64,000 bases of DNA. It comes from an uncultured Chloroflexia bacterium (GTDB taxonomy: Bacteria > Chloroflexota > Limnocylindria > Limnocylindrales > CSP1-4). The DNA lies in the NCBI GenBank assembly GCA_963757055.1, contig CAVWPX010000007.1, positions 137,070 through 201,069 of the forward strand. The letters run 5' to 3'. The translations under genes and the position numbers were made by a program. Of the stretch, positions 25,791 through 32,844 are shown one piece after another. Position 1 is the stretch's first letter; every line of letters begins with the position of its first letter. The notes under the pieces are model-generated. The model ran no database searches. It saw only the letters and a list, made by a program, of their open reading frames with translations, and had not been told where the DNA came from.

Positions 25791-26669
25791 TCAGGAAGCG
25801 TTGCTGACCGACACCGAGGCGAGGTACCTGCGCCGCCACGTCTCGGTGGCGTCGACGTTGTTGAACGTGTAGAGGTGCAGGTCGGCGACGCGCGCGGCCG
25901 GGTCCGCGATCACCGGCGCGAGCCCCTCCAGCAGCCCGTCGGGCTTGTAGAACCCGCCGGACCGGATCAGCCGCGCGACGAACCGGGCGTTCTTGGTCAG
26001 GAACCGATGCGTGTCCGCGACGCCGATCCGCGCCGTGATGGCCAGCAGCTTGTGCGGCTCGGCGACGCCCGGCAGCCCGATGTGCACCGGGAGCAGCAGC
26101 CCCTCCGCGCGCCGGGCGGCGAGCCACGACCCGATCGCGACCGGGTCGAAGCAGAGCTGCGTCGTCATGTAGCTCGCGAACTCGGCCTTGGCCGCCAGCG
26201 CCTCGGCCAGCGGCGCGTCGGGGATGAACGCGTGGCCCTGCGGGTAGCACGGGATGCCGATCTCCGCGAGCGGGTGCCCGATGTCGGCCATCTCGCGCAG
26301 CAGCGCGAGCCCGTCGGGGAAGTCCCCGGGCTCCTTGGCGTCGCCGCCGACGACGAAGGCGCGGTCGACGCCGGCGCCCTCCAGCCAGGCGATGAGGTCG
26401 GCCAGGTGGGCGCGGTCGCGGACCATCCGCGCGGACAGGTGCGGGACGGCCTTGAAGCCGCGGGCCTGGAGGGCCTCGCAGAGCCCGACGGTCGCCTCGA
26501 TCCCCTTGGCCGGTGACGCCGTGACCGAGACGGTCGCGCCGGCGGGCAGGTGGTCGGCCTGCTCGAGGGCGTTCTTGAGCGGCACCAGCTCGAACGTCGG
26601 CGAGGCGAGGACGCCGGCGACCGCCCGGCGCTGGGCGACCGTCAGCCGCGAGTGGCGGCGGAACAGCAC
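25791..26669 (-). CDS. metF: 5,10-methylenetetrahydrofolate reductase
   Basis: 292 aa MTHFR fold with N-terminal ELVPLKN motif; last gene of the corrinoid methyltransferase operon. Confidence 0.8.
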   Translation of the reverse strand: MLFRRHSRLTVAQRRAVAGVLASPTFELVPLKNALEQADHLPAGATVSVTASPAKGIEATVGLCEALQARGFKAVPHLSARMVRDRAHLADLIAWLEGAGVDRAFVVGGDAKEPGDFPDGLALLREMADIGHPLAEIGIPCYPQGHAFIPDAPLAEALAAKAEFASYMTTQLCFDPVAIGSWLAARRAEGLLLPVHIGLPGVAEPHKLLAITARIGVADTHRFLTKNARFVARLIRSGGFYKPDGLLEGLAPVIADPAARVADLHLYTFNNVDATETWRRRYLASVSVSNAS

Positions 26670-26672
26670 GGG

Positions 26673-28208
26673 CTAGACGTCCGAGTCGGGCTGGGCGGCC
26701 TTGCGCCTGACCATGAACTCGAGGAGGGCTTCGTCGGTCGCGTCGTCGAGCGGCGGCGCCTCGTACTCGGCCAGCATCCGCTTCCAGATGGCGTTCGCCC
26801 GCTGGTTCGCGTCGAGCGAGCCGTCCTCCTGCCACTGCTCGAAGCTGTTGTTGTCGGCGATCTCCGAGCGGTAGAAGGCATGCTCGAAGTTGGCCAGCGT
26901 GTGGGCGTTGCCGAGGTAGTGCTGGCCCGGCTCGTTGGTGCGGATCGCGTCGATCGCCTGGCCGTTCTCGGTCAGGTCGACGCCCTTGACGAAGACGGCG
27001 GCCATCCCGCACTGGTCGGCGTCGAGGATGAACTTCTCGTAGCCGACGGTGAGGCCGCCCTCGAGCCAGCCCGCCGCGTGGAGGACGAAGTTGACGCCGC
27101 CGAGGATCGTGGCGTTGAAGGTCGCGGCGGACTCGTAGGCCGCCTGCGCGTCGGCGATCTTCGAGGCGCACAGGTTGCCGCCGGAGCGGAACGGGACGCC
27201 GAGCCGCCGCGCCAGCGAGGCCATCACGTACAGCACCAGCGACGGCTCCGGGGTGCCGAACGTGGGCGCCCCGGACTGCATCGAGATCGACGAGGCGAAC
27301 GAGCCGAGCACGACCGGCGCGCCGGGCCGGACGAGCTGCACGAACGCCATCCCGCCGAGCGCCTCGGCGAGGGTCTGGGTCGCGGCGCCCGCCACGGTCA
27401 CGGGCGACATCGCCCCGGCGAGGATGAACGGCGTCAGCAGCGTCGCCTGGTTGGCCTCGGCGTAGGCCTGCGCGGCGCCGAGCATCACGCCGTCCCAGAC
27501 CAGCGGGGAGTTGGCGTTGATCAGGCTCAGGACGACCGGATGGTCCTCGAGATACGGCGCCCCGAACAGGATCCGCGCCATCTCGACGGTGTCGCGGGCG
27601 CGCTCGGGGGCCGTCACCGAGCCCATGAACGGCTTGTCGCTGTAGCGCATGTGCGCGTAGACCATGTCGAGGTGCCGCTTGTTGACCGGCACGTCGACCG
27701 GCTCGCAGACCGTCCCGCCCGAGTGGTGGAGGTGCGGGCTCATGTAGGTGAGCTTCACGAGGTTGCGGAAGTCCTCGATGGTGCCGTAGCGCCGGCCGCC
27801 GTCCAGGTCGCGGACGAAGGGCGAGCCGTAGTTCGGGGCGAGGACCGTGTGCATGCCGCCGATCTCGACGTTCCGCTCCGGGTTGCGCGCGTACTGCGTG
27901 AACTGGCGCGGCGCGGTCGCCTGGACGATCGAGCGCGCGAGCCCGCGCGGGAAGCGGACGCGGACGCCCGTGACGTCGGCGCCGGCCTCGCGGAACAGCC
28001 GCAGCGCGTCCTCGTTGCCGCGGAACTCGAGGCCGACCTCCTGGAGGACGGTGTCCGCGTTGTACTCGATGAGCGACAGGCCCTCCTCGTCGAGGACCTC
28101 GAACGGGGTCAGCGTGCGGGTCAGGAACGGCACGTGCTCGGCGTGCGCGAGGAGTCGGGCGGCCTGCCGGGCGGCTCGACCGCCGCTGCGCCGTCGCGGT
28201 TCGTCCAT
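26673..28208 (-). CDS. MttB-superfamily quaternary amine:corrinoid methyltransferase (non-pyrrolysine; MtgB/MtpB/MtcB-like)
   Basis: 511 aa uninterrupted TIM-barrel MttB homolog (COG5598-like), no in-frame amber codon; ATG directly abuts the RamA stop codon. Confidence 0.85.
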   Translation of the reverse strand: MDEPRRRSGGRAARQAARLLAHAEHVPFLTRTLTPFEVLDEEGLSLIEYNADTVLQEVGLEFRGNEDALRLFREAGADVTGVRVRFPRGLARSIVQATAPRQFTQYARNPERNVEIGGMHTVLAPNYGSPFVRDLDGGRRYGTIEDFRNLVKLTYMSPHLHHSGGTVCEPVDVPVNKRHLDMVYAHMRYSDKPFMGSVTAPERARDTVEMARILFGAPYLEDHPVVLSLINANSPLVWDGVMLGAAQAYAEANQATLLTPFILAGAMSPVTVAGAATQTLAEALGGMAFVQLVRPGAPVVLGSFASSISMQSGAPTFGTPEPSLVLYVMASLARRLGVPFRSGGNLCASKIADAQAAYESAATFNATILGGVNFVLHAAGWLEGGLTVGYEKFILDADQCGMAAVFVKGVDLTENGQAIDAIRTNEPGQHYLGNAHTLANFEHAFYRSEIADNNSFEQWQEDGSLDANQRANAIWKRMLAEYEAPPLDDATDEALLEFMVRRKAAQPDSDV

Positions 28209-31537: not shown

Positions 31538-32140
31538 TCAGGCGACAGCGCTTCGGATGGTCGGGGTCAGCTCGCCATAGCCCGTCGAGCGGCGTTCGAA
31601 GGCGAGCCCGAGGCGGGCCGCGGCGGCCTCCGCCTTCACGGTCAGCGCCGGGTCGTCGGTCTGCGCGAGGTAGACGAGGCGCCGGTAGCTGCCGAAGTAG
31701 TCGGGGAGCAGCTCCGGGTGCCGGTCGAGGCCGAGGCCGGCCATGACGATGGTGTCGAACTGGCGGGCGAGGAAGTCGGTCAGGTAGAACGTCCCGAGCT
31801 CCTCGTCCTGCATCGCCGCGAACGCGGCCGAGCCGGCATAGAACTCGTAGCAGTGCGCGCCGGCGATCCGCTCGACCCCCTCGCGCTCGATGACCGCGTC
31901 GAGCGCGCCGCCCGTGCCGCAGTCCGCGTACGCGACGAAGAGGCGGATGTCCGGGCCGTACGTCGCGCGGGTCTCCGCGATGCGGGCCGAGACCGCGTCC
32001 GCGATGAGCGCCGGGCGCATGTGGAGGCGGGCGTCGATGCAGATCACCTTGACCCCGGGCAGGTCCCGGGTCAGCGCGAGGAGCTCGCGCGCGAGCGCGC
32101 CACAGCCGATGACGACGACCGCGCGAGCCGTCGTGCTCCA
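31538..32140 (-). CDS. DUF1638-like protein associated with corrinoid methyltransferase systems
   Basis: N-terminal VVVIGCGALARE... and DFLARQFD motifs as I recall for DUF1638; start codon uncertain. Confidence 0.55.
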   Translation of the reverse strand, partial: WSTTARAVVVIGCGALARELLALTRDLPGVKVICIDARLHMRPALIADAVSARIAETRATYGPDIRLFVAYADCGTGGALDAVIEREGVERIAGAHCYEFYAGSAAFAAMQDEELGTFYLTDFLARQFDTIVMAGLGLDRHPELLPDYFGSYRRLVYLAQTDDPALTVKAEAAAARLGLAFERRSTGYGELTPTIRSAVA

Positions 32141-32142
32141 GG

Positions 32143-32844
32143 TCAGGCGACGCGGGCACGGCGTTCGTCGATCAGGCGCCGGGCCGTCTCGGCGGCCACG
32201 CCGGCATCGCGGCAGTAGGCATCCGCGCCGACCGCCATCCCGAACTCCTCGTTGAGCGGGGCGCCGCCGACCAGCACGATGTAGTCGTCGCGCCAGCCGC
32301 GGTCCTTGAGCGTCTGGATGACGACCTTCATGTACGGCATCGTGGTCGTCAGGAGCGCCGACATCCCGAGGATGTCGGGATGGTGCTCCTCGAGGGCGGC
32401 CATGAACTTGTCCGCGTCCGTGTTGATGCCGAGGTCGAAGACCTCGAAGCCGGCGCCCTCGAGCATCATCCCGACCAGGTTCTTGCCGATGTCGTGGATG
32501 TCGCCCTTGACCGTGCCGATCACGACCTTGCCGACCGGCTCGGCGCCGGTCTCGGCGAGGAGCGGGCGGAGGATCGCCATGCCGGCCTTCATCGCGTTGG
32601 CGGCGAGCAGGACCTCGGGCACGAACAGGATGCCGTCGCGGAAGTCGATGCCGACGATCTTCATGCCGGCGACGAGCGCGTCGTCGAGGACCTTCGTGGC
32701 CGAGAAGCCACGCCCGAGCAGGATGTTCGTCCCCTGGACGATCTCGTCCTTCATCCCGTCGTAGAGGTCGTTGTGCATCTGCTCGACGAGCTCGTCGTCG
32801 GACAACGCCGCGAGGTCGATCTCCGCGTACTCGTCCTGGGTCAT
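32143..32844 (-). CDS. cobalamin-binding corrinoid protein (MtgC/MttC-like)
   Basis: B12-binding DxHxxG motif (GDIHDIGKN), SxL-like region, GG at C-terminus of Rossmann half; N-terminal helical cap domain. Confidence 0.85.
   Translation of the reverse strand: MTQDEYAEIDLAALSDDELVEQMHNDLYDGMKDEIVQGTNILLGRGFSATKVLDDALVAGMKIVGIDFRDGILFVPEVLLAANAMKAGMAILRPLLAETGAEPVGKVVIGTVKGDIHDIGKNLVGMMLEGAGFEVFDLGINTDADKFMAALEEHHPDILGMSALLTTTMPYMKVVIQTLKDRGWRDDYIVLVGGAPLNEEFGMAVGADAYCRDAGVAAETARRLIDERRARVA

Follow-up and report, generated by a model that had tools for sequence, protein, structure and literature searches.

A seven-gene operon for a predicted MtgBCD-type corrinoid-dependent methyl-transfer pathway, conserved in uncultured Candidatus Limnocylindria (Chloroflexota)

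It was not until 2025 that cobalamin-dependent demethylation of glycine betaine was recognised in aerobic bacteria, and then solely in marine and rhizobial Proteobacteria. In the aerobe Ruegeria pomeroyi, proteomics found MtgB (two pfam06253 proteins), MtgC, MtgD, RamA, DUF1638, and MetF2 to be induced on glycine betaine (Mausz et al. 2025, PMC12478193). Components of this system are also induced on choline and carnitine, and knockouts of mtgC and mtgD showed that both genes are needed for glycine betaine catabolism and methionine synthesis (PMC12478193). A split methionine synthase was known earlier from Phaeobacter (PMC5764234). In MtgB of Desulfitobacterium hafniense, the glycine betaine site has been defined by mutagenesis and a ligand-bound structure as Y97, F356, R312, and H348 (PMC13080624). 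Here a locus of similar composition is described from a 64,000-nucleotide stretch of contig CAVWPX010000007.1 (the window). It consists of seven consecutive co-directional coding regions on the minus strand, from 25791 to 32844, one of which encodes a methyltransferase of the MttB superfamily without pyrrolysine (Table 1).

The operon probably (at roughly 0.7) encodes an IclR-controlled, single-promoter, cobalamin-dependent methyl-transfer pathway of the MtgBCD type in aerobic soil Limnocylindria, and its substrate is most probably glycine betaine. What is observed directly is which domains the proteins have, how the genes are ordered, and that the operon is conserved. All domains that the initial annotation, made from the DNA letters alone, had proposed for the seven minus-strand genes are found with Pfam and NCBIfam. 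Three of the gene junctions it listed are also exact. The MttB gene ends with TAG (26673-26675), which is followed by CCC and then by the GTG of the MTHFR-like gene at 26669; the activase stop TAG (28209-28211) abuts the MttB ATG at 28208; and the PF13769 gene and the MtgD-like gene share a GTGA overlap at 31172-31175. The fourth junction, placed at 32140/32143 between the DUF1638 and corrinoid protein genes, has to be given up, as the codon at 32140 is TGG and not a start. In relatives, DUF1638 proteins of 205-227 amino acids (aa) begin with MPASP, their GTG start overlapping the corrinoid gene at its end. Conservation was counted over the 57 related loci with enough flanking sequence. In 55 of the 57 the whole set of seven is collinear, and the MTHFR-like gene follows the MttB gene in nearly all related loci that cover that position. 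Median identity to the window is 93% for the corrinoid protein, 84% for the MttB homologue (range 79-99%), 81% for MtgD, and 78% for the activase.

Table 1. Features of the operon, its regulatory region, and the distal genes discussed in the text. Functions are predicted.
Feature	Coordinates	Strand	Evidence or remark
Corrinoid (cobalamin-binding) protein, MtgC type, 233 aa	32143..32844	-	Pfam B12-binding_2 and B12-binding
DUF1638 protein	31538..32159	-	PF07796, E = 3e-24; body intact from ~32122 to 31538
PF13769 'Virulence_fact' protein, 118 aa, conserved operon member	31172..31528	-	Pfam E = 7e-19
Methyl-corrinoid:tetrahydrofolate methyltransferase (pterin-binding, MtgD/MtrH-like), 300 aa	30273..31175	-	Pterin_bind, E = 2e-28
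RACo/RamA-type ATP-dependent reductive activase	28209..30259	-	RACo_linker, Raco_middle, RACo_C_ter; in three frames here
Activase, first frame break	29053..29057	-	Insertion of one T (GAG[T]CCC) compared with L003 and L034, three-way alignments
Activase, second frame break	28453..28454	-	Insertion of one G (TCGC[G]GCG) compared with L003 and L034, three-way alignments
Non-pyrrolysine MttB-superfamily substrate:corrinoid methyltransferase (MtgB-like), 511 aa	26673..28208	-	Pfam MTTB
Divergent MTHFR-fold protein, 292 aa	25791..26669	-	PDB 7XG9 match; sub-threshold Pfam MTHFR
IclR-family regulator, divergently transcribed	32967..33716	+	Pfam HTH_IclR E = 1e-16, IclR_C E = 3e-39
Sigma-70-like promoter TGGACA-17 nt-TAAATT	32945..32973	-	Upstream of operon; -35 box overlaps IclR start codon
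Conserved 34-nt operator-like element GTTCCATCATACGGTACGGTTCCACATCGTGGAA	32901..32934	-	Just downstream of promoter
Sarcosine oxidase genes SoxG, SoxA, SoxD, SoxB (distal, outside operon)	49303..53967	-	Pfam SoxG, SO_alpha_A3 and GCV_T, DAO
OpuA/ProU-type ABC transporter: ATPase, fused permease, OpuAC binding protein (distal)	55573..59656	+	ABC_tran, BPD_transp_1 (two stretches), OpuAC E = 1e-40
Dimethylglycine/sarcosine dehydrogenase-type enzyme (distal)	59735..62193	+	DAO, FAO_M, GCV_T, GCV_T_C; frameshift near 61290

The MttB-family protein is a full-length member of PF06253 (758 bits, profile positions 1-498 of 500). Its reading frame has 511 sense codons, no in-frame amber codon, and a stop at the end only, just as the uninterrupted 511-aa protein had been read at the outset. 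The protein was placed by pairwise comparisons with PDB sequences. It is closest to 4YYC, a Sinorhizobium meliloti homologue (725 bits, 66% identity), followed by D. hafniense MtgB (2QNE/9YCE; 408 bits, 43% identity over 468 residues) and, far below, by the pyrrolysine-containing MttB of Methanosarcina barkeri (7XCL; 98 bits, 25% identity). Leu346 aligns with the pyrrolysine of 7XCL, and MtgB and 4YYC also have Leu there. Grouping with pyrrolysine MttB, one of the outcomes that the initial annotation had named as refuting, is thus not seen. Three of the four betaine-binding residues of MtgB are kept: Y127, R341, and H377 correspond to Y97, R312, and H348. TAG happens to be the stop codon of both the MttB-family gene and the activase gene, which is of no consequence, as there is no in-frame TAG and no pyrrolysine machinery was seen. 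An exact-sequence look-up of the protein found none on record, and metagenomes contain thousands of homologues at 84-95% identity.

The other components agree with a methyl-transfer pathway to tetrahydrofolate (THF). The corrinoid protein matches B12-binding_2 (E = 8e-16) and B12-binding (E = 3e-26), and the GDIHDIGKN motif noted before is indeed present from residue 114, where the DxHxxG signature reads DIHDIG (residues 115-120). Its best-scoring NCBIfam models are those of MtgC, at 200 and 173 bits, which is below their cut-offs (200 vs 370). The assignment of an MtrH-like methyl-THF:corrinoid methyltransferase is supported by Pterin_bind and by NF005719, 'methyltetrahydrofolate:corrinoid/iron-sulfur protein methyltransferase', for which the MtgD-like protein passes the cut-off (365 vs 259 bits). 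The activase, when its frames are stitched (682 aa), has an N-terminal 2Fe-2S ferredoxin-like region followed by linker, middle, and ASKHA domains. The RACo_C_ter match spans profile positions 2-260 of 261 and runs across both frame junctions. In NCBIfam the RACo/AcsV model gives 360 bits and the RamA model 91 bits, both below cut-off. The last gene had been called MetF. The MTHFR fold stands, since PDB gives a single significant match, to the methyl-THF-oxidising S6MTHFR (7XG9; 117 bits, E = 1e-32), but the protein is not a canonical MetF: it scores 19 bits against the Pfam MTHFR cut-off of 24 (PF02219) and 36 bits against 294 for TIGR00676. S6MTHFR belongs to type 4, which are methyl-THF-oxidising partners of THF-dependent demethylases (PMC11868366). 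We infer that the MTHFR-like protein of the operon oxidises methyl-THF as well, and it may represent a separate MTHFR lineage.

Each catalytic step, and the identity of the substrate too, is modelled here on the homologous systems. The MttB-family protein would bind a carboxylated quaternary amine, most probably glycine betaine, and would move one N-methyl group to Co(I) of the MtgC-like corrinoid protein, releasing dimethylglycine. The MtgD-like pterin-binding protein would transfer the methyl group from methyl-Co(III) to THF, and the MTHFR-like protein would convert 5-methyl-THF to 5,10-methylene-THF, feeding one-carbon oxidation or assimilation. The RACo/RamA-type activase would use ATP and its ferredoxin-like domain to return adventitiously oxidised Co(II) to Co(I). 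Dimethylglycine and sarcosine could then be handled by the dimethylglycine dehydrogenase (DMGDH)-type and SoxBDAG enzymes encoded 16-29 kb away. As a functional reading, the complete module for quaternary-amine demethylation, activation, and methyl-THF oxidation that was proposed initially fits this evidence; the intactness of its activase and DUF1638 genes does not hold in the assembled sequence.

The operon is preceded by a divergent IclR-family gene, which is found at the same position in 55 of the 57 related loci and whose product is a probable repressor of the operon. The intergenic region between the IclR gene and the corrinoid gene is 122 nt long. A scan of 25300-33100 found TGGACA-17-TAAATT as the only promoter-like site (0.2 expected) and no terminator-like sites within the operon. 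The TAGATT/TAAATT box is kept in related loci. The 34-nt element GTTCCATCATACGGTACGGTTCCACATCGTGGAA contains a 7-3-7 palindrome, GTTCCAC-ATC-GTGGAAC, plus an upstream half-site, and its consensus across loci is GTTCCAY-N2-TACGG-N-AC-N-GTTCC-N7-GGAA. The window contains one copy, and 100 shuffles gave 0 matches; 51 loci likewise have exactly one copy each, which in every case is positioned just upstream of the corrinoid gene. This element is a plausible, putative operator for the IclR-family protein. An Rfam scan of the window gave no match to a cobalamin riboswitch or other RNA.

Two members of the operon have no assigned role. The gene product listed as a 118-aa unknown in the initial annotation is real, but it is not without a family: it belongs to PF13769. 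Its gene is a constant operon member in Limnocylindria and is also found in the S. meliloti MtgBCD cluster, with 42% identity (window, 31172-31528; L084, 4111-4413), and the two key papers pass it over without discussion. In the DUF1638 protein, an alignment of 30 homologues shows invariant Cys7, Cys68, Cys91, His34, His90, and His135 (numbering of the window fragment), which suggests a putative metal or cofactor site. Its predicted structure has Rossmann-like alpha/beta domains with structural matches that are generic only, and the predicted fold of the PF13769 protein has no solved relative. Sequence searches of PDB with the two proteins found nothing significant. That both are kept from Chloroflexota to Alphaproteobacteria suggests that they belong to the system, and they probably assist the activase or the re-reduction step. 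More tentatively, the compact Limnocylindria operon could be a minimal complete aerobic corrinoid demethylase, with the PF13769 and DUF1638 proteins as obligatory subunits (e.g., for cofactor loading or for protection of Co(I) from oxygen) and the MTHFR-like protein as a further methyl-THF-oxidising type. This extended version is possible though rather doubtful. If it is true, glycine betaine or related osmolytes would have a major B12-dependent sink in one of the most abundant uncultured bacterial classes of soil.

The genes that would act on dimethylglycine and sarcosine, and a betaine transporter, do exist in the window, but the link is looser than the 'neighbouring' of the initial annotation suggests: they lie 16-29 kb away. 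The same distal context includes an aldehyde dehydrogenase gene. SoxA (sarcosine oxidase alpha) is in about five frame pieces by GC content at third codon positions (GC3), and in the DMGDH-type gene one frame covers GCV_T profile positions 1-63 and the next frame 64-255. Among the 57 relatives, a DMGDH-like gene is within 10 kb of the operon in 19 and Sox genes are in 5.

The window behaves like an unpolished long-read assembly, and therefore a reading based on open reading frames (ORFs) needs frame correction. In the activase, coding signal and homology run through three frames, as seen in the three-frame translation and the GC3 frame plot. The ORF listing gives a 650-aa activase ORF ending at 28307, the C-terminal half of which is out-of-frame arginine-rich sequence. 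The RamA-like ferredoxin-ASKHA activase of the initial annotation is thus right in its domains but is not a single uninterrupted gene, being interrupted by two 1-nt insertions. Compared over all 682 residues with L034, where the ORF is intact, the stitched protein shows 95% identity, and it has no stop codon or other lesion besides the two insertions, with GC3 of ~1.0 in every frame piece. Activase orthologues are intact in 29 of 30 short-read or other loci, L081 being the exception. In the DUF1638 gene, the GTG at 32159 is out of frame with the gene body and the N-terminal codons are disrupted to ~32115; compared with L003 and L034, the window has indels at 32119-32144. Gene intactness was counted by the frames of high-scoring segment pairs in tblastn, in place of a longest-ORF test, which is insensitive because off-frames in 72% GC DNA seldom hold stops. 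By this count over the 80 related loci, 21 of 214 copies of operon genes are frame-split in the long-read 'MFD' assemblies, compared with 2 of 184 in other metagenome-assembled genomes (MAGs). Each of the three closest assemblies has private 1-nt indels in different operon genes. Genes split over 2-5 frames are found throughout the window (e.g., 38349-39874, 42495-44551, 49303-52433, 54058-55478, and 59735-62193), and they include those for an ABC ATPase, 2-oxoacid dehydrogenase E1 alpha and beta, sarcosine oxidase alpha, an aldehyde dehydrogenase, and the DMGDH-type enzyme. Programmed frameshifting in the activase was rejected, since the breaks are private single-base insertions absent from relatives. 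The activase and DUF1638 frame breaks are most likely long-read consensus errors, not biology, and this part of the apparent anomaly of the locus is then an assembly artefact.

Some other explanations of the locus need to be weighed. The operon might be decaying, with the activase and DUF1638 genes as true pseudogenes and the pathway inactive or reliant on another activase. Three frame disruptions do fall within ~4 kb of one operon, and L081, a short-read MAG, also has a split activase together with a split MTHFR-like gene. However, frame splits are about nine times commoner in long-read assemblies, the private indels of relatives hit different genes, and unrelated genes of the window are split likewise. 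The near-identity of the otherwise lesion-free stitched activase to an intact orthologue, with undiminished GC3, also speaks against decay, which we consider very unlikely. Still harder to maintain is the name given by automatic annotation, by which the MttB-family enzyme would be a genuine trimethylamine methyltransferase (MttB). Source annotations read 'trimethylamine--corrinoid protein Co-methyltransferase', and the sole NCBIfam match is the MttB equivalog TIGR02369. This match reaches 250 bits against a cut-off of 525, which does not make the protein a bona fide MttB. Together with the low identity to M. barkeri MttB and the Leu in place of pyrrolysine in an amber-free gene, the presence of the carboxylate-binding Arg and His of MtgB, at both of which MttB has Tyr, leaves this identity with hardly any credence.

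The same machinery could serve another substrate, such as proline betaine, carnitine, gamma-butyrobetaine, a derivative of choline, or another amine, quaternary or tertiary. In the MttB superfamily specificity shifts at >50% identity: MtcB and MtyB are 53% identical, yet their preferred substrates differ (PMC8604678), and therefore 43% identity to MtgB cannot fix the substrate. R312 and H348 are common to enzymes for several acidic quaternary amines (PMC13080624). The fourth binding residue of MtgB, F356, is replaced by G385 here (Gly in 4YYC too), with a Trp (W381) four residues before it, and F356L in MtgB raised Km ~800-fold (PMC13080624). These points weigh against the glycine betaine pathway proposed above, and to them should be added that the betaine-related genes (49303-62193) are separated from the operon by unrelated genes, that the two MttB paralogues of R. 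pomeroyi were implicated by proteomics only (PMC12478193), and that Leu48, Arg78, and Pro268 of S6MTHFR, the highlighted residues in three motifs of type-4 MTHFRs (PMC11868366), align with Ser, Met, and Thr in the MTHFR-like protein. On the other side, the window protein keeps Y97, which belongs to an aromatic pair that MtcB, MtpB, MthB, and MtyB do not conserve. DMGDH-like or Sox genes are near the operon in 24 of 57 relatives, the window itself has an OpuAC/DMGDH/Sox island, and the alphaproteobacterial counterparts are induced on glycine betaine; another substrate is unlikely. A different role would be given to the corrinoid, pterin-binding, activase, and DUF1638 proteins if they were mainly or additionally a split cobalamin-dependent methionine synthase, completed by MtgE (methyl-THF to methionine). 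The same modules are essential for methionine synthesis in Phaeobacter inhibens (PMC5764234) and R. pomeroyi (PMC12478193), and homologues of S. meliloti bmt/MtgE (30-44% identical) are found 1-8 kb downstream of the operon in ~17 related loci, in several of them (L005, L007, L013, L018, L035, and L074) ~1 kb past the MTHFR-like gene. However, the 64-kb window yielded no MtgE homologue, and neither did L003 and L034 within 10 kb. The MttB-family donor methyltransferase and the MTHFR-like gene are part of the operon in every case, which argues for the catabolic direction. A methionine synthase role, main or additional, seems rather improbable; as a dual role it would be compatible with demethylation of glycine betaine and not exclusive of it.

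The host is, by its genome matches, an uncultured soil Chloroflexota bacterium of the class Candidatus Limnocylindria. The GC content of the window is 70-77% throughout, and the initial annotation had taken it for a high-GC actinobacterium, which is the wrong phylum. In a species-representative genome collection, the 80 best loci nearly all carry names of Candidatus Limnocylindrales/Limnocylindria, 'uncultured Chloroflexia', or other Chloroflexota. The two closest, L003 and L034, are Chloroflexota MAG contigs with 92.7% and 91.2% DNA identity over ~9.3 kb and additional flanking blocks on both sides (88-95% identical). An actinobacterial origin is ruled out by these matches because Limnocylindria is a class within Chloroflexota. 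Four short contigs (L012, L024, L046, and L059) with 82-85% identical MttB genes come from MAGs labelled Methylomirabilota, Patescibacteria, Verrucomicrobiia, and Sphingomonadales; L024 carries the complete operon and the other three only fragments of it. They are probably mis-binned contaminants because of their identity to Limnocylindria genes. Within the Limnocylindria literature, the sole mention found is a passing remark that mttB/mtgB-type genes are common in the class (PMC11264602), and a 2026 Limnocylindria genomics paper is without mention of the pathway.

Some observations were made on related loci and on the flanks of the operon. In L078, a Limnocylindria MAG, an 81% identical MttB homologue (10001-11530) has no other operon gene nearby and is adjoined by DMGDH-like genes; it may represent a second paralogue, or the locus may have been rearranged. 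MtgE homologues (homocysteine-binding methyltransferase) often exist as two copies per Limnocylindria locus, hinting at a Roseobacter-like link to methionine synthesis. Examples, with their coordinates, are 12811-13650 in L005, 12783-13631 in L018, 12744-13655 in L013, 5491-6330 in L007, 9636-10511 in L035, 7805-8653 in L074, and 12417-13280 in L081. Downstream of the operon in the window, the minus strand from 15153 to 23544, read by eye, has a CysO/MoeZ/Mec-type cluster for cysteine synthesis with a sulfur carrier (JAB/MPN protein, cysteine synthase, ThiS-like, ThiF-rhodanese) and an Rrf2-SufC-SufS-SufU set. In 28 of 57 relatives, SufS and/or SufC homologues also lie downstream, no more than 10 kb from the operon.

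The operon is not a new kind of system, as an MtgBCD-type gene set was already described in aerobes in 2025. What it adds is that a system of this kind exists in Candidatus Limnocylindria, an uncultured class that is abundant in soil and freshwater, as one unit with tight conservation across the class. The ecological reach of the pathway and its demand for vitamin B12 are thereby likely extended to soils. It also offers a seven-gene set for reconstitution, two conserved proteins of which are DUF1638 and PF13769, with a candidate regulator and a candidate operator.

Among known systems, MttB/MttC/RamA of Methanosarcina (7XCL) shares the TIM-barrel fold of MttB, and it likewise has a cognate corrinoid protein and an activase that depends on ATP. 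However, it is pyrrolysine-dependent, its MttB is only 25% identical, and it passes the methyl group to coenzyme M; furthermore, the activase of the window, with its N-terminal ferredoxin-like region, is nearer to RACo/AcsV than to RamA. The MtgB/MtgC/MtgA system of D. hafniense (2QNE, 9YCE; PMC13080624) is closer: it belongs to the same superfamily, follows the same reaction logic, and shares the Leu in place of pyrrolysine as well as the Y97/R312/H348 residues. It differs in F356, which is Gly here, and in its corrinoid protein, as that of the window is below the MtgC cut-off, and D. hafniense is anaerobic. The split methionine synthase of P. inhibens (PMC5764234) has the same corrinoid, pterin-binding, RamA-like, and DUF1638 modules, with co-occurring genes for a RamA-like protein and for DUF1638. 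Its operon, unlike the present one, has no MttB-family gene, and the system requires a homocysteine-binding subunit, which is absent from the window. For the MTHFR-like protein, S6MTHFR of Sphingobium lignivorans SYK-6 (7XG9; PMC11868366) is the only solved relative, and both are encoded beside a THF-dependent demethylase. With Ser, Met, and Thr at the three highlighted positions, membership of the window protein in type 4 is not established.

The closest counterparts are the aerobic MtgBCD systems. The initial annotation had described the characterised members without pyrrolysine as mostly from anaerobic Firmicutes, a statement that is now incomplete, since the aerobic MtgBCD has been described and the alphaproteobacterial structure 4YYC solved. 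The component set of R. pomeroyi is found here as well, all in one operon. Clusters of S. meliloti and Paracoccus encode homologues that are 66-69% (MttB), 69-72% (MtgC; 72% in S. meliloti and 69% in Paracoccus), and 64-65% (MtgD; 65% in S. meliloti) identical to those of the window, and 50-58% for the activase. The S. meliloti cluster also has DUF1638, the PF13769 gene, MTHFR genes, an ASKHA protein, and bmt/MtgE, and a plasmid of Paracoccus methylovorus carries a similar gene set with an MttB homologue of 69% identity. As in these bacteria, the host is aerobic and has dimethylglycine and sarcosine genes nearby, though at 16-29 kb in the window. While S. meliloti and Paracoccus have a pair of MTHFR and 'MTHFR C-terminal domain' genes, a single divergent S6MTHFR-like protein is encoded here, and MtgE is absent from the window. 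The host is a member of Chloroflexota. The genes are scattered in R. pomeroyi and spread over ~10 kb on both strands in S. meliloti, whereas in Limnocylindria they form one tight operon under a divergent IclR gene.

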